DNA of 64,000 nt from Escherichia coli (GCF_024298765.1 NZ_CP101210.1); one strand, 5' to 3'; positions 1 to 13,950 are shown, numbered from the stretch's first letter. Numbers and translations: made by a program. The notes: generated by a model not told the origin, from the sequence alone.

Positions 1-129
1 GATCCGGACCTTATCTGGTCATTACCTGACGGAGAAATACGTCGCTACGACAGGCGTCAGAACATAATCTGCCGCGAGTGCCGGAAGAGTGAAGTTATGC
101 AGCGCATACTGGCATTTTATCAGGGATAA
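1..129 (+). CDS. 3' end of a hypothetical prophage protein (partial, continues left of window)
   Basis: Frame 1 is open from the window edge to TAA at 127-129; no recognisable motif. Confidence 0.25.
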   Translation, partial: DPDLIWSLPDGEIRRYDRRQNIICRECRKSEVMQRILAFYQG

Positions 130-190
130 TGTTAGATATTTTAGACGTTACTAGATTAAAAAGCATTAGTTCAGGAGTGAATTGACATTC

Positions 191-433
191 TCATTTTTCA
201 TGGCACAGGGTAGATCTGGCGTGGTTGTCCGCTTTGTGCCAACAGCGGACGTTACTAACGAAACTGTGAGTTAAAAACGGGAGCTGGTCACCTCCATCCC
301 GCGAAATGGAATTCAAAAATGCCCTCATGTACGGTACTTCTAGTCTGATGTGAGCATTTTCGTGGATTTTTTCGAGCCACTCCAACGAATGATTACATTC
401 AGTTTCGGGCACTAAAACGTCATAAATCCGCAA
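191..433 (-). CDS. hypothetical protein (80 aa)
   Basis: ORF in the six-frame track; no recognisable family; may be spurious. Confidence 0.2.
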   Translation of the reverse strand: MRIYDVLVPETECNHSLEWLEKIHENAHIRLEVPYMRAFLNSISRDGGDQLPFLTHSFVSNVRCWHKADNHARSTLCHEK

Positions 434-662
434 GTTGAGGAGTAGCGATCAGCCAATTGGTTAAAAAACAGCTTTAATTCCCTTTTTCAAGCAGGCTCCT
501 TGTCGCACGTCTGGTGCATCCAATTCATTTCAGTTACCCTGATGCCATACTGGCACGGACTAGCTCTCTTAATTGGCGCTGGTTTGTTAACCTTGTCCGC
601 TGTCGGGTCTTTGTAAGTTGTAATTCCTAAACTAGCATAATTTTATTATAAGGCCTCTTACT

Positions 663-1688
663 ATGCACATTTTATCTGTTTCAAAAAAGGAAGTTGGAAG
701 AGCTGGGGATAGATTAGTTTCTCAGTTTGGTACAGGTGAAAAATATAAAGAGGAAGATGTACAAATTCTTCATGAGTGGAGGATGTTGCATTTATATCCT
801 TTAAGTAAAATACAATTTTATATGGAAAGAGAGGCTATTTCCTTAAACAAAAATGCGTTACTATCCTCTAGAATTAAGAGGATGCCTTCCATTGTTACTA
901 AGCTTTCTAGATTTCCTGATATGAAGTTAAATAAGATGCAGGATCTTGGTGGGTGCCGGGCTATTTTAAATAATCTGGATCAAGTGTATGATTTAGTTAA
1001 TAAAATAAAATCATCTAAATTCTCACATGAACTAGTTAGAATGGATGATTACATGATAGACGTGAAAGATTCTGGTTATAGAAGCTTTCATATGGTCTAT
1101 TCATTCCAAAATAAAAAATTTCCATCTTTAAATGGGTTGCGCATTGAAATGCAAATAAGAACAGCTATTCAACATAGCTGGGCTACAGCAGTTGAAATGG
1201 TTGGTTTGTTTCGAAAGGAATCATTGAAATCTGGTTTTGGTGATGCAAGATGGCTTAGGTTTTTTGAATTGGTATCAGAGCTTTTTTATAAACTTGAGTA
1301 TGAAAAAGAACCATCTGGGAGTTATATAAAAATATCAGAAGAATTAAGTTATTTATCCGTCGAGTTGAATGTTTTCGATATATTAGCTGCTTACAATGCC
1401 GTAGTTAGCCATATTGAGGGTAGCAAAAAATATGATAAAGGACTTTGCATAATTGTTGTTGATACCATAAAGCGGAATATAAATATAAAGAGCTTCGAAA
1501 ATCACAATCATGCGAAGGCGGCAGAAGCTTATGTCGAGTCTGAAAAATACTGCGCGGAAAATAAAGGCTGTGAAGTGGCTATGGTTTCTGTTAGTTCAAT
1601 TAGTGAATTAAAAAATGCATATCCTGCTTACTTTTTAGATACGAAAACTTTTTTAAATTATCTCAGTAGGTATGTTTTTATAAAATAA
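663..1688 (+). CDS. RelA/SpoT-domain nucleotidyltransferase (small alarmone synthetase-like, toxSAS/CapRel-like) with fused C-terminal domain of unknown function
   Basis: 341-aa ORF. Synthetase-fold motifs visible in the translation: RIKRMPSIVTK (RxKxxxSxxxK), DLGGCRAI (DxxGxR), GYRSFHMVY (compare GYQSLH of Rel enzymes), EMQIRTAIQHSWA (E-x-Q-I-R-T...H). About 140 aa of C-terminal extension without a recognised motif. Visibly AT-rich relative to flanks. Confidence 0.7.
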   Translation: MHILSVSKKEVGRAGDRLVSQFGTGEKYKEEDVQILHEWRMLHLYPLSKIQFYMEREAISLNKNALLSSRIKRMPSIVTKLSRFPDMKLNKMQDLGGCRAILNNLDQVYDLVNKIKSSKFSHELVRMDDYMIDVKDSGYRSFHMVYSFQNKKFPSLNGLRIEMQIRTAIQHSWATAVEMVGLFRKESLKSGFGDARWLRFFELVSELFYKLEYEKEPSGSYIKISEELSYLSVELNVFDILAAYNAVVSHIEGSKKYDKGLCIIVVDTIKRNINIKSFENHNHAKAAEAYVESEKYCAENKGCEVAMVSVSSISELKNAYPAYFLDTKTFLNYLSRYVFIK

Positions 1689-2121
1689 AAAATGTTATCT
1701 GGAGTGGTCTGAATTCTACTAACTTAGTTTTTTCAGACCGCTTCTGACCACAATGGCCTGTGAGGTTCTGCTGCTAGTCAACATAAAATAACAAAGCCGG
1801 CAGGTGGTGGTTGTTGTAAAGTTATTCAATGACATTCATGGAGGCTTAAGCGAATTATTTGTCCCTGGTCGGTATGGTGGCAACAGCTTGTTGCGAGAAT
1901 TTGGCTAATTTGGACTGACTTCCGCTCCTTGCTCAAAGCGGACTAGAAGGTTAGCTTGTGTCGGACTTTGCGTATTAAAAGAAGTGCTGGTGGTGACTAG
2001 TGGTTGAGCCCCATTTCCACAGAAAAAATCAGAGAAACTATACCCAATAGTTGTATTGAATCACTGACGAGACAGCCTCATATTCATCAGGACTGGTGTA
2101 CGTCCAATACAGGAGGTTGTG

Positions 2122-2211
2122 GTGCTGGTTCTCAAATGTGCGCTGGCTATTACGGCTGTAATGGCGATTTATTGTCTTGCTATTGTTCTTATGGATCGCC
2201 TTTCTGACTGA
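2122..2211 (+). CDS. small hydrophobic peptide (29 aa, GTG start), candidate membrane/toxin-like peptide
   Basis: AGGAGG at 2111-2116, 5 nt upstream of GTG at 2122; translation VLVLKCALAITAVMAIYCLAIVLMDRLSD, stop TGA 2209-2211; one predicted transmembrane helix. Too short for the ORF track. Confidence 0.3.
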   Translation: MLVLKCALAITAVMAIYCLAIVLMDRLSD

Positions 2212-2422
2212 TTTCATATTGGCGAGGTAAAGGTAGTTAAGTAGAATGGCTGCGGGTGCTTGAGGCTATCTGCCTCGGGCATGAACACCAAAGGCAGATA
2301 GAGAAAAGCCCCAGTTAACATTACGCGTCCTGCAAGACGCTTAACATTAATCTGAGGCCAATTTCATGCTAGACACATGTAGGTTAGCCTCTTACGTGCC
2401 GGAAGGCAAGGAGAAGCAGGCT

Positions 2423-2578
2423 ATGAAGCAGCAAAAGGCGATGTTAATCGCCCTGATCGTCATCTGTTTAACCGTCATAGTGACGGCACTGGTAACGAGG
2501 AAAGACCTCTGCGAGGTACGAATCCGAACCGGCCAGACGGAGGTCGCTGTCTTCACAGCTTACGAACCTGAGGAGTAA
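2423..2578 (+). CDS. hokD: Hok-family type I toxin HokD (RelF)
   Basis: Translation MKQQKAMLIALIVICLTVIVTALVTRKDLCEVRIRTGQTEVAVFTAYEPEE matches HokD as I recall it; the track ORF 2366..2578 extends 19 codons upstream in frame. Confidence 0.8.
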   Translation: MKQQKAMLIALIVICLTVIVTALVTRKDLCEVRIRTGQTEVAVFTAYEPEE

Positions 2579-2646
2579 GAGACCCGGCGAGGGAGAAATC
2601 CCTCGCCACCTCTGATGTGGCAGGCATCCTCAACGCACCCGCACTT

Positions 2647-2678
2647 AACCCGCTTCGGCGGGTTTTTGTTTTTATTTT
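2647..2678 (+). terminator. intrinsic terminator downstream of hokD
   Basis: GC hairpin AACCCGC-TTCG-GCGGGTT followed by a T-run. Confidence 0.6.
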
Positions 2679-2794
2679 CAACGCGTTTGAAGTTCTGGAC
2701 GGTGCCGGAATAGAATCAAAAATACTTAAGTAGCGCGCAGGGATAAGAGGGATGGTCCCTTAAAGGGGAGAGCTAATTATCCGGAAGGATTCTG

Positions 2795-3046
2795 ATGATG
2801 AACATCGAAGAACTGCGTAAAATTTTTTGTGAAGATGGCCTCTATGCTGTGTGCGTTGAAAATGGAAATCTTGTTAGTCATTACCGCATTATGTGTTTGC
2901 GAAAGAATGGGGCTGCGTTAATTAATTTTGTGGATGGTCGAGTGACAGACGGATTTATCTTGCGCGAAGGTGAGTTTGTCACTTCATTACAGGCACTGAA
3001 AGAGATCGGAATAAAAGCAGGCTTTTCAGCTTTTGCAGAAGAATAA
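2795..3046 (+). CDS. rem: prophage protein Rem-like (83 aa)
   Basis: 83-aa ORF at the position and size of Qin rem, between hokD and ydfU; assigned by synteny and length. Confidence 0.5.
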   Translation: MMNIEELRKIFCEDGLYAVCVENGNLVSHYRIMCLRKNGAALINFVDGRVTDGFILREGEFVTSLQALKEIGIKAGFSAFAEE

Positions 3047-3112
3047 ACTCATCTACAATCTTGCGCGGGGCTGAACTCCCGCTGAGTAACACCGTGCCAC
3101 CGGAGAAAACCG

Positions 3113-3391
3113 ATGGCACGCAACGTAAAATATTACAATTCTGATAATTCGCCCGTTCTTGCCTGCACGCACGGGCGGTATTCTCACGCATTCAAGTCTG
3201 AATGGTTCCAGCACCCTCCATGCACTGCAGAACAGGCCGAATGGCTGATTCATTCTTACTGCAGGCGCGGGTTCGAGGTTAAGAAAGCTCTCAGTCTCGA
3301 CTATCGGCACTGGATAATCTCTGTCAGGCTGCCTTATTCCGAACGCCCACCACGTGCGTCCCGCACTTTCCAGCAACGGATCTGGAGGTAA
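3113..3391 (+). CDS. hypothetical protein (92 aa), overlaps the start of the ydfU-like ORF in another frame
   Basis: ORF with GGAGAAAACCG ahead of the ATG; non-repetitive, protein-like composition; ends inside the 5' end of the next ORF. Confidence 0.35.
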   Translation: MARNVKYYNSDNSPVLACTHGRYSHAFKSEWFQHPPCTAEQAEWLIHSYCRRGFEVKKALSLDYRHWIISVRLPYSERPPRASRTFQQRIWR

Positions 3392-4442
3392 CGTGCGGGT
3401 ATTACTTAGACCTGTTCTGGTGCCTGAGCTTGGGCTGGTGGTCCTTAAGCCGGGCCGTGAATCCATACAGATATTTCATAATCCTCGAGTGCTGGTGGAA
3501 CCGGAACCAAAAAGCATGCGTAATCTGCCATCCGGAGTCGTTCCTGCCGTTCGCCAGCCGCTGGCGGAAGACAAAACATTGCTGCCGTTTTTTAGTAACG
3601 AACGGGTGATTCGTGCTGCTGGCGGCGTTGGCGCATTGTCTGACTGGCTATTACGTCATATTACATCCTGCCAGTGGCCTAATGGCGATTACCATCACAC
3701 TGAAACAGTCATTCACCGTTATGGTACCGGCGCAATGGTGTTGTGCTGGCACTGCGACAACCAACTGCGTGACCAGACATCGGAATCACTGGAGCTGCTT
3801 GCTCAACAAAATCTGACAGCATGGGTGATTGACGTCATCCGTCACGCAATAAGCGGTACGCAGGAGCGGGAATTATCTTTGGCTGAATTATCCTGGTGGG
3901 CGGTCTGCAATCAGGTGGTGGATGCACTACCTGAGGCTGTATCGCGTCGTTCGCTGGGATTACCAGCGGAAAAAATCTGCTCGGTGTACCGCGAAAGCGA
4001 CATCGTACCGGGAGAGCAGACCGCCACCAGCATATTGAAACAACGCACAAAAAATCTTGCACCGTTGCCTTACGCCCACCAGCAACAAAAACCACCACAG
4101 GAAAAGACGGTGGTAAGCATCAACGTTGATCCAGAGTCTCCGGAATCTTTCATGAAGCTGCCTAAACGTCGCCGCTGGGTTAAGGAGAAATACACTCGTT
4201 GGGTTAAGACACAGCCGTGTGCTTGCTGCGGTATGCCAGCCGACGATCCGCATCATCTGATTGGTCACGGGCAGGGCGGAATGGGAACAAAAGCACATGA
4301 TCTCTTTGTGTTGCCTTTGTGCAGAAAGCATCACAACGAGCTGCATACGGATACAGTGGCATTTGAAGAGAAGTATGGCTCCCAACTGGAGCTGATATTT
4401 CGTTTTATCGATCGCGCGCTGGCAACTGGCGTACTGGCGTAA
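3354..4442 (+). CDS. ydfU: YdfU-like prophage protein with C-terminal Cys/His HNH-like motif
   Basis: Large ORF upstream of the Q gene as in Qin; C-terminus CACCGMPADDPHHLIGHG...LCRKHHNELH resembles an HNH/zinc-binding nuclease motif. True start uncertain (first 50 aa are low-complexity; an internal Met at 3516 is possible). Confidence 0.5.
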   Translation: MRPALSSNGSGGNVRVLLRPVLVPELGLVVLKPGRESIQIFHNPRVLVEPEPKSMRNLPSGVVPAVRQPLAEDKTLLPFFSNERVIRAAGGVGALSDWLLRHITSCQWPNGDYHHTETVIHRYGTGAMVLCWHCDNQLRDQTSESLELLAQQNLTAWVIDVIRHAISGTQERELSLAELSWWAVCNQVVDALPEAVSRRSLGLPAEKICSVYRESDIVPGEQTATSILKQRTKNLAPLPYAHQQQKPPQEKTVVSINVDPESPESFMKLPKRRRWVKEKYTRWVKTQPCACCGMPADDPHHLIGHGQGGMGTKAHDLFVLPLCRKHHNELHTDTVAFEEKYGSQLELIFRFIDRALATGVLA

Positions 4443-4455
4443 GTGGAGAACGAGC

Positions 4456-5208
4456 ATGAACCTTGAAGCCTTACCAAAATATTACTCCCCAAAATCTCCA
4501 AAATTGAGCGATGACGCTCCAGCGACAGGCACCGGTTGTTTAACAATTACGGATGTAATGGCAGCGCAGGGGATGGTGCAGTCGAAAGCACCACTTGGGT
4601 TGGCCTTATTTCTGGCAAAAGTTGGTGTTCAGGACCCTCAGTTTGCGATTGAAGGCCTGCTAAATTACGCGATGGCACTGGATAACCCGACATTGAACAA
4701 ATTGAGTGAAGAAATCCGGTTACAGATTATTCCTTACCTCGTGAATTTTGCCTTTGCTGATTACTCCAGGTCTGCGGCAAGTAAGGCTCGCTGTGAGCAT
4801 TGTTCAGGTACGGGATTTTATAATGTATTGCGCGAAGTGGTGAAACACTACAGACGCGGGGAATCTGTAATCAAGGAAGAATGGGTGAAGGAACTATGTC
4901 AGCATTGCCATGGTAAGGGCGAAGTCAGCACAGCGTGCAGAGGGTGTAAGGGTAAAGGGATTGTTCTGGATGAAAAAAGAACCCGGTTTCATGGCGTACC
5001 GGTATATAAGATTTGTGGGCGTTGTAATGGAAACCGATTTAGTCGTTTACCGACCACGCTGGCACGACGTCATGTCCAGAAGCTGGTACCAGACCTGACC
5101 GATTATCAGTGGTATAAGGGGTATGCGGACGTCATTGATAAACTGGTAACAAAGTGCTGGCAGGAAGAAGCATACGCGGAAGCGCAATTGAGGAAGGTGA
5201 CGAGATAA
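4456..5208 (+). CDS. quuQ: late-gene antiterminator Q-like protein with DnaJ-type CxxCxGxG zinc-finger repeats
   Basis: 250 aa, matching the length of Qin Quu[25 protein letters not shown] motifs; immediately upstream of a late promoter/terminator pair. Confidence 0.6.
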
Positions 5209-5239
5209 ATGATTTTTGCTGAAGATGGCGACATGATGT

Positions 5240-5268
5240 TTGCATTTTTCAAAAAACATGGATAAGAT
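5240..5268 (+). promoter_or_regulatory. candidate late promoter (PR'-like): -35 TTGCAT, 17-bp spacer, -10 TAAGAT
   Basis: TTGCAT at 5240-5245 and TAAGAT at 5263-5268, 32 nt after the Q stop codon. Confidence 0.45.
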
Positions 5269-5314
5269 TCTCTCAACGATGGGCTTTGTGTATCCGACGT
5301 TTAGAAAAAAGTAG

Positions 5315-5340
5315 AAAACCCGCTTATAAGCGGGTTTTTG
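5315..5340 (+). terminator. intrinsic terminator (tR'-like) downstream of the candidate late promoter
   Basis: AAAACCCGC-TTATAA-GCGGGTTTTT hairpin with T-run. Confidence 0.6.
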
Positions 5341-5883
5341 TGCTTTAAATGGGGCAATAGAGATATTGAATCTCATCCCGGGATAAACATTGGCAGTTGA
5401 AGGTCCACGCGAACCATTTATCCGGCAAAATTCCACGCGTAATCCTGTGGTAATTTCTTCTGCATCTCGAAGATTGAGAGCTGAAACGTGAAGCTGGGCA
5501 TCGATACGCCATCGGATGGGAATATAAGACCTTTGCTGCTTTTGTAGTCAAAGTTTTTGACAATTCCTGTCATTTTAGGGGACAGAAAAACTCCTTAATA
5601 CTGATAACCTGGTGCACCATACACACGTTCCTGGAGAAAACTACTTTTTTGATAGGGTTGAAGGTGGCTGGATGTCTAAAATAAACATTGCTTCATATGT
5701 TCAACTATGAGTTAATGACTGCGTCGGTTTGAAGAACAGACGATATACGAAGTAGTTTACTAAAGCAGTTCTCATTTCAGGTGTTATTCACTTATTCCTT
5801 CTTTGAGTCTCTCCAATTAAGTACGAAGTCGTTTCTGTTATGCAAACCATTTATGCCGAAAGGCTCAAGTTAAGGAATGTAGA

Positions 5884-6099
5884 ATGTCAAATAAAATGAC
5901 TGGTTTAGTAAAATGGTTTAACGCTGATAAAGGTTTCGGCTTTATTTCTCCTGTTGATGGTAGTAAAGATGTGTTTGTGCATTTTTCTGCGATTCAGAAT
6001 GATAATTATCGAACCTTATTTGAAGGTCAAAAGGTTACCTTCTCTATAGAGAGTGGTGCTAAAGGTCCTGCAGCAGTAAATGTCATCATTACTGATTAA
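5884..6099 (+). CDS. cspB: cold-shock protein CspB-like
   Basis: 71 aa [64 protein letters not shown]...; RNP-1-like KGFGFI motif; long upstream leader typical of csp genes. Confidence 0.8.
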
Positions 6100-6380
6100 A
6101 ATTCATCGCTCGTCTGTATACGATAACGAAGAAGGCTGATGCCTGAGTAGAGATACGGACAGAGTAGTGAATATTGGATCTCTTTAATAAAAAGTAAGGA
6201 GGTCCAATACATGAAACAATGGCCAGCATATTTGGCAAAATCTTAATCAGGAAAAGTATGCTAACCATTGTGGTGAAGTGCAGGTTTGCTGCATGAATAG
6301 TTTTACAGCAGAAGCTAACTGCTGGCATGGCAAAACAAAGTGCGTAAGTGGATGACTCCCACAAAAAGCACCACAATCTC

Positions 6381-6405
6381 AAACCCGCTCAGGCGGGTTT
6401 TTTAT
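6381..6405. terminator. GC hairpin with flanking A/T runs (possibly bidirectional terminator)
   Basis: AAACCCGCTCAGGCGGGTTTTTT between cspB and the minus-strand small ORF. Confidence 0.4.
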
Positions 6406-6462
6406 TATCTGCTTTAAATATATTATTAAAATATAAAAAATACTTGTTACTAATAAAATCAA

Positions 6463-6633
6463 TCAGGCTACAGCTTTAAGATTTGTCTGGAATACTTTGT
6501 TGCAATGAGGGCAGATCAAAAGGGCACCTTTTTGTACTCTTGAAAAACTGTGTTCTGACTCTTGGGTGCAGTTTGGGCAGGAACATTTAACGAGATAATT
6601 ACGGCGTGATTTTGAGTCTTTACGTTCTGACAT
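6463..6633 (-). CDS. small zinc-ribbon protein (56 aa from internal Met)
   Basis: CSCPNC...CPHCNK four-Cys ribbon with a basic N-terminus; AGGAAA ahead of the Met at 6633. Confidence 0.35.
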   Translation of the reverse strand: MSERKDSKSRRNYLVKCSCPNCTQESEHSFSRVQKGALLICPHCNKVFQTNLKAVA

Positions 6634-6852
6634 AGGCTTTTCCTGTATAAATGGCCGTATACAGTACACTAAATATGAAAACATTTCTCGTATTATTATT
6701 TTATATATGACTTTCTTTCAAAATAATTACTCACATTTTTAATGTGTATGTTTCTTTAGCGCCGTTGAGAACAACGTGTGCTGTCAAAACTACCCCGTAG
6801 ACTCCGATCTTTTCAAACATATTGCACCATCCGTGTACATCGGGGTGAGGAT

Positions 6853-7068
6853 ATGAAATCAATGGATAAGTTAACAACAGGTGTTGCCTATGGCACATCG
6901 GCGGGTAATGCTGGTTTCTGGGCATTGCAGTTACTCGATAAAGTAACTCCGTCACAGTGGGCTGCAATCGGTGTGCTGGGTAGCCTGGTTTTTGGCCTGC
7001 TGACGTATCTGACAAATCTTTATTTCAAGATTAAAGAAGACAGGCGTAAGGCTGCGAGAGGAGAGTAA
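6853..7068 (+). CDS. essQ: holin (lambdoid S-like, dual-start MKSM motif)
   Basis: 71 aa from ATG 6853 with GGTGAGG upstream; dual-start MKSMDKL, a hydrophobic helix region and a charged C-terminus; directly upstream of ydfR and the lysozyme. Confidence 0.7.
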
Positions 7069-7072
7069 TCCA

Positions 7073-7380
7073 ATGACTCAAGACTATGAACTGGTTGTGA
7101 AAGGAGTCCGTAATTTTGAGAATAAAGTTACGGTAACTGTAGCCTTACAGGACAAAGAACGCTTTGACGGTGAAATTTTTGACCTGGATGTCGCCATGGA
7201 CCGTGTTGAAGGAGCTGCGCTGGAGTTTTATGAGGCAGCAGCCAGAAGGAGCGTCCGGCAAGTCTTCCTGGAAGTAGCAGAAAAATTGTCAGAAAAAGTT
7301 GAGTCTTATCTGCAGCATCAGTACTCCTTTAAGATTGAAAATCCTGCCAATAAGCACGAGCGTCCTCATCATAAATATCT

Positions 7381-7384
<4 letters not shown>
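7073..7384 (+). CDS. ydfR: YdfR-like prophage protein (103 aa)
   Basis: ORF between holin and lysozyme, as in Qin; stop overlaps the lysozyme start (ATGA). Confidence 0.5.
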
Positions 7385-8408
<1,024 letters not shown>

Positions 8409-8771
8409 GGTAATATTAAATCGGAACATTTACATCGCGGAATGTAAAATTTAAATAAAAAGGACTCTTCCATGAGCCAAAATTCCTGAAATCTTAAGGG
8501 TAAGATAAAAGGTCTTAATCAGAATGACACGTTTTATTAATAAATAAAGCTATTCTTTCATTGCTGTGTTTTTCTTTACAAAAGTAATCCTTGCTATGGG
8601 TGGTTAATCATGCGTTAATGGTGTTCTGGTTTGTTACAAATTTATCTGAAGCAGTCATTTTTATAATTTTATTATTTGTACCTCTTGAGATTTCCTTGTT
8701 GGTTTTTCTCTCTGATATTTTTTTTTCGGACCATTCTGCCCAAGGGCTAATTTCTTCAAAAGGTAATAATT

Positions 8772-8984
8772 ATGTCTAACAAAATGACTGGTTTAGTGAA
8801 ATGGTTTAACCCTGAAAAAGGTTTTGGTTTCATCACGCCGAAAGATGGCAGCAAAGATGTGTTTGTCCATTTCTCAGCAATTCAGAGCAACGATTTCAAA
8901 ACATTAACTGAGAATCAGGAAGTTGAATTTGGTATTGAGAACGGACCTAAAGGTCCTGCCGCTGTTCATGTAGTGGCGCTTTGA
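8772..8984 (+). CDS. cspI: cold-shock protein CspI-like
   Basis: 70 aa [70 protein letters not shown]. Confidence 0.8.
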
Positions 8985-9015
8985 GGTAGACAATATTACA
9001 AACCATATTCACTTT

Positions 9016-9183
9016 AGATGCCCGTGTTGTCATGGTTCCCAGTATAGAACATCATCTTTTGATGTTTCTGACATGAATCCTTTCGGGGCAAAATGTATCT
9101 TTTGTAAATCAATGATGATTACATTTGATAATATTTCACAATACTTAAATGCCAGCCGTCTGTCGTTGGATTTAAAAAAGTGA
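9016..9183 (+). pseudogene. YnfN-like small zinc-ribbon ORF without a canonical start codon
   Basis: Open frame encoding ...RCPCCHGSQYRTSSFDVSDMNPFGAKCIFCKSMMITFDN...; no ATG/GTG/TTG between the upstream TAG (8971) and the first Cys codon; followed by a strong terminator. Confidence 0.3.
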
Positions 9184-9187
9184 AAAT

Positions 9188-9213
9188 GAAGGCTCCTTCG
9201 GGAGCTTTTTTGC
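9188..9213 (+). terminator. intrinsic terminator
   Basis: GAAGGCTCC-TTCG-GGAGCTTTTTT. Confidence 0.6.
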
Positions 9214-9255
9214 TTGGTGTCTATTCGATGGATACTCACATACTACGGTAACATC

Positions 9256-9486
9256 ATGAAAAAAATCATAGTTTTTTTTAACTCTGAACCAGCAGTGGTA
9301 GTGTCAGCGATGACTGGAGTTAACACCATCATGCGTGAATATCCAAATGGCGAAAAAACACACCTTACTGTAATGGCCGCAGGGTTTCCATCTCTGACCG
9401 GAGATCATAAAGTCATTTATGTAGCCGCGGATCGACATGTTACTTCAGAAGAAATTCTGGAAGCAGCAATAAGGCTCTTGAGTTGA
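9256..9486 (+). CDS. hypothetical small protein (76 aa)
   Basis: ORF from ATG 9256 (MKKIIVFF...); no recognised motif. Confidence 0.3.
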   Translation: MKKIIVFFNSEPAVVVSAMTGVNTIMREYPNGEKTHLTVMAAGFPSLTGDHKVIYVAADRHVTSEEILEAAIRLLS

Positions 9487-9654
9487 TTTGATGCTATTGC
9501 ATTGATAATTCAGGAAAATTCTCTTTGTCTGTTTGTGTAAAATTTAGACTATCGTATGTTGATTATTGCGATGTTTCATCTTATCTTTTACACGTTTGCA
9601 CCATATAATCGACTTACTGTGTAACTGGAAAGTCATAACAGACTAAAAGAGGAA

Positions 9655-9831
9655 ATGATGAATATTGAAGACTTAAAAACAAAAGCAGAAGCAGATATTT
9701 CTGAATATATAACAAAAAAAATTATTGAACTTAAGAAAAAGACCGGGAAAGAAGTTACCAGTATTCAGTTTACCGCACGGGAAAAAATGACGGGTCTTGA
9801 AAGCTATGATGTCAAGATTAATTTAATCTGA
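9655..9831 (+). CDS. gnsB: GnsB-like small protein
   Basis: Translation MMNIEDLKTKAEADISEYITKKIIELKKKTGKEVTSIQFTAREKMTGLESYDVKINLI resembles GnsA/GnsB; AAAAGAGG ahead of the ATG. Below the ORF-track length cutoff. Confidence 0.65.
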   Translation: MMNIEDLKTKAEADISEYITKKIIELKKKTGKEVTSIQFTAREKMTGLESYDVKINLI

Positions 9832-9982
9832 TGTATTCAATAATAAAGTTTATCCATAAACCTCGTTTTTACGGGGTTTTGTTATATTTGAATGGTTCCG
9901 AATATCTAAATCACAATTGTTGATGGTTTTTATTAAACCAATGCAGTCCGGCTCAGGAGTGAGAGAAGCCGGACGTTATGGT

Positions 9983-10507
9983 TTAGCGTGGTAAGATCTG
10001 TGTAGTTTTCTGGATGCTTTCAGTAAATAGTAATGAGTTATCAAAGGCATAGTAATATCTTTGGTGTTCCTGGATATTTGTAACCCATCGGAAAACTCCT
10101 GCTTTAGCAAGATTTTCCCTGTATTGTTGAAATGTGATTTCTTTTGATTTCAACTTATTATAGGAGGTCTCTATAAGATGTTTGTTTCTGGAGAATTTAA
10201 CATTTACAACCTTTTTGAGTCCTTTTACTAACACTATGTTGTCGTTTTCTAACACAATGTGAATATTATCTGTGGCTAAATAGTAAATATAAAGTGAGAC
10301 ATTGTGACGTTTTAGCTCAGAATAAAATAATTCACAGTTTAAATCTTTACGCACTTGATCGAATATTTCTTTAAAAATGGCAGCCTGAGCCATTGGTAAA
10401 CCTTCCATGTGATACGATGGCGCGTAGTTTGCGTAACAAAGTTGAGCCTTGCTGGCATCCAGGAGGGATATGCAACCGACAGATGTATGTAAGGTCGATG
10501 TACTCAA
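9983..10507 (-). CDS. ydfO: YdfO-like protein (DUF1398 family, as recalled)
   Basis: ORF at the Qin ydfO position; true start may be an internal Met (near 10408 or 10393). Confidence 0.45.
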
Positions 10508-10593
10508 ACTTTCATACTTTTCCTCTTTTATGCAGAAAGATTTGAAGTAATATTTTAACCGCTAGATGACGAGCAAACGCATGGAGCGACAAA

Positions 10594-10800
10594 ATGAATA
10601 AAGAACAATCTGCTGATGAACTCTCGTTGGATCTGATTCGTGTAAAAAATATGCTTAATAGCACCATTTCTATGAGTTACCCGGATGTTGTAATCGCATG
10701 TATAGAACATCAGGTGTCTCTGGAAGCATTCAGGGCAATTGAGGCAGCGTTGGTGAAGCACGATAAGAATTCGAAGGATTATTCCCTGGTGGTTGACTGA
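10594..10800 (+). CDS. hypothetical small protein (68 aa)
   Basis: Track ORF upstream of the packaging genes; possibly ynfO-like but not recognised with confidence. Confidence 0.3.
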
Positions 10801-11139
10801 GCACCATAACTGCTAATCATTCAAACTATTTAACCTGTGACAGAGTCAATGTCGCATTCTGTCACTGTCAGGCTAATACAGAGCTGCAATTCAACTACTG
10901 CAATGTCCTCGTAATTAGGTGAATTTACATATCGTCCTGTTCGGATGCCGGCTGCATTGCTGAAGATGAGGCATTTATGGTTCGCATATTTTCCCCTCAT
11001 GCTCGTCAGTCCTGTGCGTAGGAAGAAACAGGACACTCACACTAATTTGTGTGGGCATGCTGTGATGTCCTTCTGAATTATTCCTATGCCATTATGTAAA
11101 GCGCTGTATCAGATGCTCGTCACGGCTGTCAGGCTGTCG

Positions 11140-11235
11140 GGTCCTCCCGGTGGGGGCCCCTGCCACGGGGCGGGAGCGTCGCGGAAAAAGGCTAGTTTTT
11201 GAAATTTCATTCGTCATCACCACTACTGTAATAGA
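11140..11235. promoter_or_regulatory. candidate cos site (cosN/cosB-like)
   Basis: ACGGGGCGGGAGCGTCGCGGAAAAAGG...TTTCATTCGTCATCAC closely resembles lambda cos (ACGGGGCGGCGACCTCGCGGGTTTTCGC...TTCGTCATAAC, from memory), just upstream of the terminase small subunit. Confidence 0.45.
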
Positions 11236-11353
11236 TTGATATTACAGTGTTTTTATTTTTGTGGTGTCGATTTTGATTGTTTTTTGTTCATCACTAACAC
11301 CGTTTGCCTAAAGTTGTTCGCAAGATGCATGTTTAAAACATTCTGGAGCGGGT

Positions 11354-11848
11354 ATGGATCGAGAGTTAAAAAATCTGACGCTGAATATCAGTCAACTGGC
11401 GGCACTGTCAGGTGTACATCGCCAGACTGCTGCGGCAAGGCTGCAAAATCTACCCGTTGCAGGGGGGCATGAAAGCAACCTCAAGCTTTATCGGGTGGTT
11501 GATATTGTGTCGGCATTTCTGGCATTACCACCGCCGGTTGCAGAAAGCGAAATGGATGCGCATGAGCGCAAAGCCTGGTATCAGTCTGAACGTGAGCGTC
11601 TTAAGTTCGAACAGGAAACGGCACAACTCATTCCGGCCAGTGATGTCAGACGGGAGTTTGCCATCTGGGCAAAAGCGGTCGTGCAGGTGCTGGAGACATT
11701 ACCGGATATTCTTGAACGTGACTGCGGTCTGCAGCCTGCCGCTGTGAGCCGTGTTCAGTCCATTATTGATGATCTGCGCGATCAGATAGCCCTGCGGGTG
11801 ACTGAAGCAGGTGCGGATGATGAGGAGGAATTACAGCAGGAGGAGTAA
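11354..11848 (+). CDS. nohA: terminase small subunit (Nu1-like DNA-packaging protein)
   Basis: 164 aa with an N-terminal HTH-like segment, immediately upstream of and overlapping (TAATG) the large terminase gene. Confidence 0.6.
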   Translation: MDRELKNLTLNISQLAALSGVHRQTAAARLQNLPVAGGHESNLKLYRVVDIVSAFLALPPPVAESEMDAHERKAWYQSERERLKFEQETAQLIPASDVRREFAIWAKAVVQVLETLPDILERDCGLQPAAVSRVQSIIDDLRDQIALRVTEAGADDEEELQQEE

Positions 11849-13950
11849 TGCTGAATCAGGAAACCGCAAAGGCAGCACGAACCGATTCAGGTTATATCCT
11901 TCGCGCACCGAGACGAATGCGGGTTGCTGATGCCGTTGCTCAGTATATGCGGGTGCCCCTGGGGGCAGGGAACTCAGTCCCGTGGGATCCGCTGGTGGCA
12001 CCGTATGTTATTGAGCCGATGAACTGCCTGGCCTCGCGTGAATACGACGCAGTGATATTTGTTGGCCCGGCACGAACCGGCAAGACTATCGGCCTGATTG
12101 ACGGCTGGGTGATTTACAACGTGATTTGCGATCCTGCTGATATGCTGATCATTCAGATGACGGAGGAAAAAGCCCGCGAACACTCCAAAAAACGACTCGC
12201 CAGAACGTTTCGCGTCAGCCCGGAAGTGGTCAGTCGCCTGAGTCCGAACAAAAATGACAACAACGTTTATGACAGAACATTCCTTGCTGGTAACTACCTG
12301 AAAATCGGCTGGCCGTCAGTCAATATCATGTCCTCATCAGATTATAAATGCGTCGCGCTGACGGATTATGACCGTTTTCCGGAAGATATTGATGGCGAGG
12401 GGGATGCTTTCTCTCTTGCCTCAAAACGTACCACAACATTTATGTCCAGTGGTATGACGCTGGTGGAGAGTTCCCCCGGCAGGGATGTGAAGGATGTGAA
12501 ATGGCGACGGACTTCACCGCATGAGGCTCCACCAACCACGGGGATACTGTCGCTCTATAACCGTGGTGATCGCCGTCGCTGGTACTGGCCCTGTCCATAC
12601 TGTGGTGAGTATTTTCAGCCCTGCGGCGATGTGGTTGCTGGTTTCCGTGATATTGCCGATCCCGTGCTGGCAAGTGAGGCGGCTTATATTCAGTGTCCTT
12701 CCTGTTCAGGACGGATTATGCCTGAACAAAAACGTGAGCTGAACGGACGTGGGGTCTGGTTGCGGGATGGTGAATCCATCAATGCGGATGGCAGTCGTTA
12801 TGGTGATCCCCGACGCTCACGTATTGCGTCATTCTGGATGGAGGGGCCGGCAGCTGCTTACCAGACACTCTCGCAACTCGTTTACAAACTGCTTACTGCA
12901 GAACAGGAATACGAGACAACCGGAAGTGAAGAAACACTCAAGACGGTTATCAATACCGACTGGGGATTACCTTATCTTCCCCGCGCCAGCATGGAGCAAC
13001 GAAAAAGTGAACTGCTTGAGCAGCGGGCAGAGCCAGTTCCTTCCCGCAGTGTGCCGGATGGCGTTAATTTCCTTGTGGCGACAGTGGATGTGCAGGCGGG
13101 ACGTCATCGCCGTTTTGTGGTTCAGGTAACGGGCTATGGCAGCCGTGGCGAACGCTGGATTATTGATCGTTACAACATCACGCAGTCATTGCGCGGTGAC
13201 AGCGACGGGGAGAGCCAGCGAATTGATCCGGCCAGCTATCCGGAAGACTGGGATGTCCTGCTGACGGATGTTTTTCATAAAAGCTGGCCGCTGGCCTCCG
13301 ATCCTTCTCAACAAATGCGACTGATGGCAATGGCGGTGGACTCCGGCGGTGAAGACGGGGTCACTGATAATGCCTATAAATTCTGGCGTCGTTGCCGTCG
13401 TGATGGCCTTGGTAAACGTATTTACCTGTTTAAGGGCGACAGCATCCGGCGCGCAAAACTGATCACCCGTACATTCCCTGATAACACCGGACGAACGGGC
13501 CGACGGGCGCAGGCCGCAGGTGATGTGCCGCTCTGGCTTCTTCAGACGGATGCACTGAAAGACCGGGTGAATAACGCGTTATGGCGTGACTCGCCAGGTC
13601 CCGGCTATGTGCATTTCCCTGACTGGCTGGGGAGCTGGTTTTACGACGAACTGACGTATGAAGAGCGGAGCAGTGACGGGAAATGGAGTAAGCCAGGTCG
13701 CGGTGCCAACGAAGCTTTTGACCTGATGGTGTATGCCGAGGCTCTGGTCATTCTGCATGGATACGAAAAGATCCGCTGGCCGGATGCACCGGAGTGGGCG
13801 AGCCGGGAAACCTGGCTGGAGTGTGTCCCGGACAGTACCGAACCGTCACCCACACCGGAACCGGTATCCACGCCTGTTAAAAAACAAAAACGGAAGAAAA
13901 CAGTAACTGACGATGTTAACCCCTGGCTGACTTCCGGAGGATGGTTATGA
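11848..13950 (+). CDS. terminase large subunit (lambda gpA-like)
   Basis: 700 aa; Walker A-like VGPARTGKT; position between Nu1-like and gpW/portal genes. Confidence 0.8.
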   Translation: MLNQETAKAARTDSGYILRAPRRMRVADAVAQYMRVPLGAGNSVPWDPLVAPYVIEPMNCLASREYDAVIFVGPARTGKTIGLIDGWVIYNVICDPADMLIIQMTEEKAREHSKKRLARTFRVSPEVVSRLSPNKNDNNVYDRTFLAGNYLKIGWPSVNIMSSSDYKCVALTDYDRFPEDIDGEGDAFSLASKRTTTFMSSGMTLVESSPGRDVKDVKWRRTSPHEAPPTTGILSLYNRGDRRRWYWPCPYCGEYFQPCGDVVAGFRDIADPVLASEAAYIQCPSCSGRIMPEQKRELNGRGVWLRDGESINADGSRYGDPRRSRIASFWMEGPAAAYQTLSQLVYKLLTAEQEYETTGSEETLKTVINTDWGLPYLPRASMEQRKSELLEQRAEPVPSRSVPDGVNFLVATVDVQAGRHRRFVVQVTGYGSRGERWIIDRYNITQSLRGDSDGESQRIDPASYPEDWDVLLTDVFHKSWPLASDPSQQMRLMAMAVDSGGEDGVTDNAYKFWRRCRRDGLGKRIYLFKGDSIRRAKLITRTFPDNTGRTGRRAQAAGDVPLWLLQTDALKDRVNNALWRDSPGPGYVHFPDWLGSWFYDELTYEERSSDGKWSKPGRGANEAFDLMVYAEALVILHGYEKIRWPDAPEWASRETWLECVPDSTEPSPTPEPVSTPVKKQKRKKTVTDDVNPWLTSGGWL

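Follow-up and report, generated by a model that had tools for sequence, protein, structure and literature searches.

The window (the whole 64,000-nt stretch of Escherichia coli DNA that we analysed) carries a gene for a Q antiterminator of the lambda type. Behind the stop codon of this gene (TAA, 5206-5208) lies a short intergenic unit comprising a candidate promoter, a pause element and an intrinsic terminator, followed by an antisense remnant of cspF, by cspB and ynfU, and by a lysis cassette (Table 1). Past the lysis genes come cspI, several small genes and a plus-strand terminator at 9858-9879 (past gnsB). These are followed by terminase, portal, capsid and tail genes, all on the plus strand like those for the holin, lysozyme and Rz. 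An identical sequence is annotated in E. coli strain 104 with the gene order hokD, rem, ydfU, ydfT (Q), cspF, cspB, ynfU, holin and, further on, terminase; there, the Q gene product is labelled as the ydfT antitermination protein. The matching genome is identical to the window over positions 1-11900 and 99.8% identical over the rest. Its prophage, inserted in ydfJ, is full length and extends from the integrase gene to the tail-fibre genes.

Table 1. Features of the Q-to-lysis region, with window coordinates and the basis of each assignment
Feature	Position	Strand	Basis or remark
Q antiterminator gene (quuQ/ydfT type, 250 aa)	4456-5208	+	Pfam PF03589; homology to lambda Q
PR' -35 hexamer TTGCAT	5240-5245	+	aligned to lambda TTGACT; invariant among 19 distinct Qin-type variants
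Spacer TTTTCAAAAAACATGGA, 17 nt, putative Q-binding element (QBE)	5246-5262	+	where lambda PR' has its Q-binding element
PR' -10 hexamer TAAGAT	5263-5268	+	aligned to lambda TAAATT; TAAAAT in K-12
Predicted +1 (A5275), pause element AACGAT (+1 to +6) and GGG discriminator (+7 to +9)	5275-5283	+	equals lambda AACGATGGG
Predicted promoter-proximal pause positions (RNA of 17-18 nt)	5291-5292	+	RNET-seq pauses in K-12, 16 and 17 nt past the start
tR' intrinsic terminator: 10-bp stem, 4-nt loop, U-tract	5315-5343	+	folds; K-12 3' end
cspF pseudogene, frameshifted, 3' end deleted	5383-5585	-	RefSeq annotation of identical sequence; antisense to late transcription
cspB unit: start near 5723, cspA-type thermoregulator leader, CDS 5884-6099	5723-6146	+	RF01766, 158.9 bits (gathering threshold 78); CSD domain
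Intrinsic terminator past cspB	6381-6400	+	terminator scan; second barrier for the late transcript
ynfU	between cspB and holin	-	annotation
Lysis cassette: phage-21-type holin (6853-7068), ydfR, lysozyme rrrQ, Rz-like rzpQ	6853-8408	+	PF04971, PF07041, PF00959, PF10721

Relative to K-12, a 258-bp deletion (at window 5376-5383) removes ynfS and the 3' end of cspF, leaving the promoter-terminator unit intact beside it. Next on the plus strand, cspB is an autonomous moron with its own start, thermosensor leader and terminator. A preliminary description of this DNA had named cspB as the first gene read by late transcription. It is indeed the first sense-strand open reading frame downstream, but the antisense cspF remnant lies in between. 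Two full-length cspA-type thermoregulator leaders (RF01766) are found on the late strand, one before the lysis cassette (that of cspB) and one after it (8625-9011, 113.4 bits, belonging to cspI). In the early or nin region, upstream of hokD and rem, the window encodes a RelA/SpoT-domain protein of 341 aa (663-1688), which is absent from the stretch of K-12 Qin examined, where relBE is found instead.

Phage mEp460 and a Stx2c-converting phage carry a Q that is 95% identical and a near-identical unit, followed by different cargo: a lipoprotein-like open reading frame, a DNA methylase and tRNA-Met. The site just past the terminator appears to be a general insertion point. The unit lies within a 751-bp region (window 5150-5900) that ~30% of complete E. 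coli genomes carry (1643 of 5426).

The Q protein is a lambda-family member, matching PF03589 at 183.5 bits (cut-off 26.7) and, in addition, the DnaJ CXXCXGXG domain PF00684. BLASTP against lambda Q gives 34% identity (E = 2e-41) with one 48-aa insertion, and the comparison with the Q-lambda chains of PDB 7UBM/7UBN gives E = 5.7e-37. In Q-lambda, residues 1-44 make a torus, and the N- and C-terminal segments fold into a nozzle at the RNA-exit channel of the polymerase (PMC9388147). The N-terminal segment and a C-terminal VTR motif are conserved between the two proteins. Q-lambda reads a 13-bp asymmetric QBE with its helix-turn-helix body and a zinc arm, which contacts QBE positions 11-13 (PMC9388147). 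Four CxxC motifs (C113, C148, C161 and C186) are present in the Qin-type Q, and its 48-aa DnaJ-like insertion (residues ~121-168) occupies the position of the single zinc-ribbon arm of Q-lambda. This long form of Q is common to many phages of Salmonella, Klebsiella, Erwinia and Yersinia. Apart from this DnaJ-like insertion in the DNA-reading arm, the Q protein is not unusual. As the insertion sits in the arm that contacts the QBE, DNA recognition is not simply transferable from lambda. A Qin-type Q with a DnaJ-like double zinc finger may load with a geometry unlike that of Q-lambda.

The preliminary description had pointed to TTGCAT and TAAGAT, spaced by 17 bp, 32 nt after the Q stop codon, with a strong intrinsic terminator about 45 nt further on. 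Both observations hold on re-reading the sequence, as do all its other coordinates and distances: the -35 hexamer begins 32 nt past the last base of the stop codon, and the hairpin begins 46 nt after the -10 hexamer. As a sigma70 promoter, the site is a weak match to consensus (3/6 at -35 and 4/6 at -10, 7/12 in total), and a consensus sigma70 scan of the window does not list a promoter at 5240-5268. Taken alone, the two hexamers do not exceed what chance would give, and the case for PR' therefore rests on homology. In the 64-kb window, there is a single match to the composite lambda-type pattern TTG-N20-TAANNT-N6-AACGAT, namely this site. By our own arithmetic, an exact match to the 13 fixed bases of the pattern over 128,000 positions has a chance expectation of ~0.002, and shuffled sequences yield 0.11 matches even with one mismatch permitted. 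Thus, the observation stands out from chance through the composite pattern, not through the hexamers.

Alignment with lambda makes the homology explicit. Lambda PR' reads TTGACT-TATTGAATAAAATTGGG-TAAATT-TGACTC-AACGATGGG, and the window reads TTGCAT-TTTTCAAAAAACATGGA-TAAGAT-TCTCTC-AACGATGGG. The two share the arrangement of -35, 17 nt, -10 and 6 nt, and the nine bases of pause element and discriminator at +1 to +9 are identical. The spacers, which in the window include the portions TTTTCAAAAAA and TGG, agree at 11 of 17 bases, a comparison that is approximate as far as the QBE is concerned. In lambda, AACGAT at +1 to +6 is a -10-like repeat that is re-bound by sigma70, giving the pause at +16/+17 (PMC5001585, PMC9388147), and GGG at +7 to +9 serves as the discriminator of the pause element (PMC5001585). 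Homology of AACGAT to lambda +1 to +6 places the predicted start at A5275, the same base that the preliminary description had guessed.

The window also departs from lambda in several respects. Its hexamers differ from those of lambda; the TAAGAT form of the -10 is also found in phage mEp460 and in Stx2c phages. The -35-like TTGACT element beside the lambda pause site is absent, its place being taken by TTCTCT in the window, TTTTTT in K-12 and TTTTCC in mEp460; a role for this element in lambda was reportedly described by Nickels et al. in 2002, which agrees with PMC9388147. The lambda leader, known as 6S RNA, is 194 nt long, whereas the predicted leader here is ~67-69 nt. Finally, the window has the enlarged Q arm described above and cold-shock morons between terminator and holin. 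Lambda and the window nevertheless have in common a PF03589 Q, the gene order Q, PR', tR' and late genes, a pause at about +16 to +18 (in the K-12 ortholog) and a short terminated RNA that is made constitutively.

Experimental data are available for the orthologous unit in the intergenic region between ydfT (quuQ) and cspF of the K-12 Qin prophage. This unit is near base-for-base identical to that of the window from the Q stop codon to past the terminator. The differences comprise a -10 of TAAAAT, TTTTTC upstream of +1 and another terminator loop, as well as the 258 bp of additional DNA with ynfS and an intact cspF. Furthermore, K-12 Qin is a truncated cryptic remnant, whereas the prophage of the window is full length. 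Between -35 and +1 the two alleles differ at four positions. What follows was measured in K-12 and would apply to the window by sequence similarity.

Sun et al. 2021 (PMC7876045) tabulate sigma70-affinity RNET-seq pauses together with dRNA-seq starts from Thomason 2015. Among the starts in that table, the nearest to the Qin pauses is NC_000913.2 1640446(-). The pauses themselves lie at 1640429(-), 1640430(-) and 1640433(-), with scores of 6881, 5783 and 1875, and the Qin pause ranks 4th in the distal promoter-proximal class and occupies row 12 of the full table. We converted between NC_000913.2 and NC_000913.3 with an offset of 1976 and checked it on cspB, whose start was predicted at NC_000913.2 1639739 from the homologue of the Rfam model start at window 5723; exactly this position is tabulated. 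After conversion, the tabulated start (NC_000913.3 1642422) falls on the leading A of AACGAT, which corresponds to window 5275. Thus, the start that the preliminary description had expected near 5275 is confirmed by the tabulated dRNA-seq data for the K-12 ortholog. Term-seq adds a 3' end at NC_000913.3 1642356(-), classified as "orphan" and seen in two conditions, whose flank ends in ...GCGGGTTTTGTGC (Adams et al. 2021, PMC7815308). This 3' end falls 8 nt past the hairpin stem. Together, the start and the 3' end define a 67-nt RNA, and the pauses correspond to transcripts of 17-18 nt.

Two further K-12 sites are worth recording. A second "orphan" 3' end, at NC_000913.3 1642188(-), lies 234 nt from the start and past a weak AT-rich hairpin (PMC7815308), in the segment that is deleted from the window. 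It suggests some tR' read-through, or processing, in uninduced K-12, which has no known Q expression. In the DLP12 prophage (NC_000913.3 ~577217-577290), the 2nd and 4th strongest sigma70 pause rows of the RNET-seq table (PMC7876045) lie 12-13 nt past a start at NC_000913.2 576452. That start is an A preceded by TATGCT, with a strong terminator immediately after it, and is located ~170 nt upstream of the holin gene essD. The site resembles another late promoter-terminator unit of a prophage, with nmpC and IS5 lying between it and its Q gene.

We also find that the layout of the unit is a family trait. Relatives of Q were collected from phage records by tblastn, and the DNA past each Q stop codon was read. 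We compared 17 units: those of the window, K-12, mEp460, the Stx2c phage, lambda, P22, HK97, SPN3UB, YeP1, 640R1, Salmonella SF6, a Klebsiella phage, a Proteus phage, Edno5, ST104, an Erwinia phage and a phage with a recorded Vibrio host. The host range thus covers Escherichia, Salmonella, Klebsiella, Erwinia, Edwardsiella, Proteus and Yersinia, together with the one recorded Vibrio host. A -35, a 16-17-nt spacer and a -10 are present in 17/17, and so is, 5-7 nt past the -10, a hexamer of the form (A/C)A-N-N-N-T (usually AACGAT) followed by GGG. The start lies 40-79 nt past the Q stop codon in every unit. For 12 of the 17, termination at the first terminator yields a leader of ~58-73 nt; lambda and SF6 have long leaders of about 194-199 nt. 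The unit had been called compact, and compact it is, but this does not set it apart, since a short leader is the norm for the family.

P22 (gene 23) and HK97 illustrate this point: they have a lambda-family Q, a near-lambda PR', AACGAT and a leader of ~60 nt, and are equally compact, but their Q is short (207 aa) and the holin follows within ~400 nt with no morons between. The preliminary description had instead proposed the qut regions of phages 82 and 21 for comparison, which is not appropriate. Those phages follow the same logic, in that their promoter carries a Q-binding element and is followed by a pause that depends on sigma and by a terminator. However, their Q proteins belong to PF06323 and PF06530, which are unrelated to PF03589, and no homology links Q-lambda with Q21, which binds to a tandem direct repeat in dimeric form; in phage 82 the pause is at +25. 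The window Q matches neither PF06530 nor PF06323, but only PF03589 and the DnaJ zinc-finger domain. Lambda and P22 are thus the correct comparison. We also considered whether the Qin-type Q is the "Q21" marker used for STEC and rejected this, as the Q21 primer is absent from the window, from the Stx2c-phage relative and from all loci.

Conservation at close range was assessed in a Qin-type set of 80 viral contigs, together with K-12, mEp460 and the Stx2c phage. The contig search was made with a single Q and gave only relatives whose Q is 95-100% identical. Among these units, the -35, the first 11 bases of the spacer, its TGG and the -10 (TA[A/G][A/G]AT) are near-invariant, while flanking DNA varies. 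The pause hexamer is AACGAT or AATGAT in all 78 of the 80 loci in which the unit was located, the other two being cut off or not located. Past about +16 the leader varies, as does the sequence of the terminator, but the hairpin is always kept. This combination of conserved promoter and pause element with a variable leader is as expected for a DNA site bound by protein and sigma, followed by a terminator in which only structure matters.

The terminator itself has perfect hairpin arms (5315-5324 and 5329-5338), after which the sequence continues as TTTTTGTGC (5335-5343), placing the predicted 3' end of the leader near 5343. The leader RNA (5275-5346) folds at -22.8 kcal/mol, compared with -13.5 +/- 2.6 for shuffled sequences (z = -3.58; 0 of 200 shuffles as good). 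An Rfam scan of 4400-9200 (E <= 1) finds no family for the leader; apart from the two cspA thermoregulators, it gives only sub-threshold chance matches, rnk_pseudo (27 bits) and RsmY (19 bits). The hairpin is kept in 22 related units, and three of its pairs are changed on both sides.

Taken together, these data make it very probable that 5240-5343 is a lambda-type late-gene control cassette of a Qin-family lambdoid prophage, made up of PR', a Q-loading site and tR'. The preliminary description had read the region as a Q-utilisation unit, and this reading is supported by the homology to lambda PR', by the layout shared among the 17 units and by the start, pause and 3' end of the K-12 ortholog. 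By analogy with lambda, Q would bind the spacer and read-through of tR' would depend on Q.

Could the unit instead be mainly the gene of a trans-acting small RNA, its 67-69-nt leader, with antitermination secondary or lost? StxS offers a precedent: a by-product of PR' and tR' that acts as an Hfq-dependent small RNA and that, like the leader here, is a short constitutive RNA produced by termination at tR' in the lysogen. The K-12 RNA likewise has a defined 3' end with hairpin and U-tract, the leader has a conserved 5' stem, and a node named "cspF.ydfT.IGR" appears in the Hfq RIL-seq networks. However, a RIL-seq-based predictor gives this same node a very low small-RNA probability of 0.0024 and few partners. 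StxS arises by processing of a longer leader, and it is an Hfq binder whose targets are defined, whereas the leader here has that low predicted probability. Furthermore, the leader varies freely among Qin-type units from +16 to the terminator, which argues against a conserved seed. Moreover, a small-RNA role would add to antitermination rather than replace it. We therefore consider it improbable that the unit is mainly a small-RNA gene.

A relic, in which promoter, pause and terminator still work and Q no longer antiterminates, so that late genes are silent or otherwise expressed, also appears improbable. It would fit with K-12 Qin being a cryptic remnant and with the large insertion in the Q arm relative to the studied Q-lambda. 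Our literature search on quuQ/ydfT function also found nothing specific, neither an experiment on nor a functional study of this Q. Against this, the Q reading frame is intact, with conserved torus-forming termini, and the prophage of the matching genome is full length. Moreover, mEp460 and Stx2c-converting phages, deposited as complete phage genomes, carry a 95%-identical Q with an equal PR'. An intact prophage and near-identical units in deposited phages make a relic unlikely.

The hairpin is also a good terminator on the minus strand, where the 10-bp stem (z = -3.55) is followed by CTACTTTTTT, and the terminator scan lists it on that strand only. With a T-run on this side too, the hairpin would be bidirectional. 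It is nevertheless very unlikely that it is merely the convergent terminator of cspF(-ynfS), as suggested by the K-12 genes running towards it, and that the 7/12 hexamers are a chance match with no late-control role, because the K-12 start, sigma70 pause and 3' end are all where predicted and on the strand of Q, lambda has the identical AACGATGGG, phages without cspF (mEp460 and Stx2c phages) keep the terminator at the same distance from the start (+41 to +60), and the unit is intact in the window even though its cspF is a pseudogene. A dual role of the terminator is plausible and compatible with the late-control cassette.

We propose that this cassette works as follows. Host sigma70 RNA polymerase would initiate at A5275 whether or not the prophage is induced. 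Sigma region 2 would then re-bind AACGAT at +1 to +6, along with the GGG discriminator, holding the polymerase in a pause with an RNA of 16-18 nt. In the absence of Q, the polymerase would escape and terminate at the hairpin (5315-5338), releasing an RNA of ~67-69 nt. Upon induction, Q would be made from the early rightward operon, bind the spacer DNA between -35 and -10 and engage the paused complex. As for Q-lambda, its nozzle on the RNA-exit channel would then block terminator hairpins. The modified polymerase would pass tR', the antisense cspF remnant, cspB with its terminator, antisense ynfU and the lysis genes. It would then continue past the terminator at 9858-9879 into the terminase, head and tail genes, covering ~29 kb in total.

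An additional feature of the leader concerns its 5' end. Across lambda-Q-type units, the first four transcribed bases, AACG, belong to the pause element and are complementary to a conserved CGTT ~22-28 nt downstream (window 5275-5302), so that a 5'-terminal stem can form. The same stem can be drawn in lambda, P22, ST104 and Erwinia phage 49, and in the latter two it takes the form AACA...TGTT, with both sides changed. For individual sequences, shuffle tests yield weak values (0.003-0.4), and the lineages do not count as independent. That the leader is more than a by-product (through a selected 5' stem or a StxS-like role), that the loading geometry of the Qin-type Q differs from that of Q-lambda, or both, seems to us rather unlikely. 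If the 5' stem is selected, it might shield the late mRNA of ~29 kb, or else the abundant RNA of 67 nt, from 5'-end-dependent decay; alternatively, the leader might act in trans, like StxS.

Here, we describe a very probable late-gene control cassette whose proposed mechanism is of the textbook type and which was previously unannotated. Its recognition explains three observations that K-12 data sets give only as coordinates or as "orphan", namely a transcription start, a top-ranked sigma70 pause and an "orphan" 3' end, as PR', pause element and tR' of Qin. Near-identical copies of the unit stand upstream of the cargo region in Stx2c-converting phages. We also find that cold-shock morons (cspF, cspB and cspI) with their own terminators are lodged inside the late operon. 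Given two further plus-strand terminators between PR' and terminase (6381-6400 past cspB and 9858-9879 past gnsB), late gene expression should depend on processive antitermination by Q, beyond the passage of tR', and prophage induction should co-transcribe cspB.
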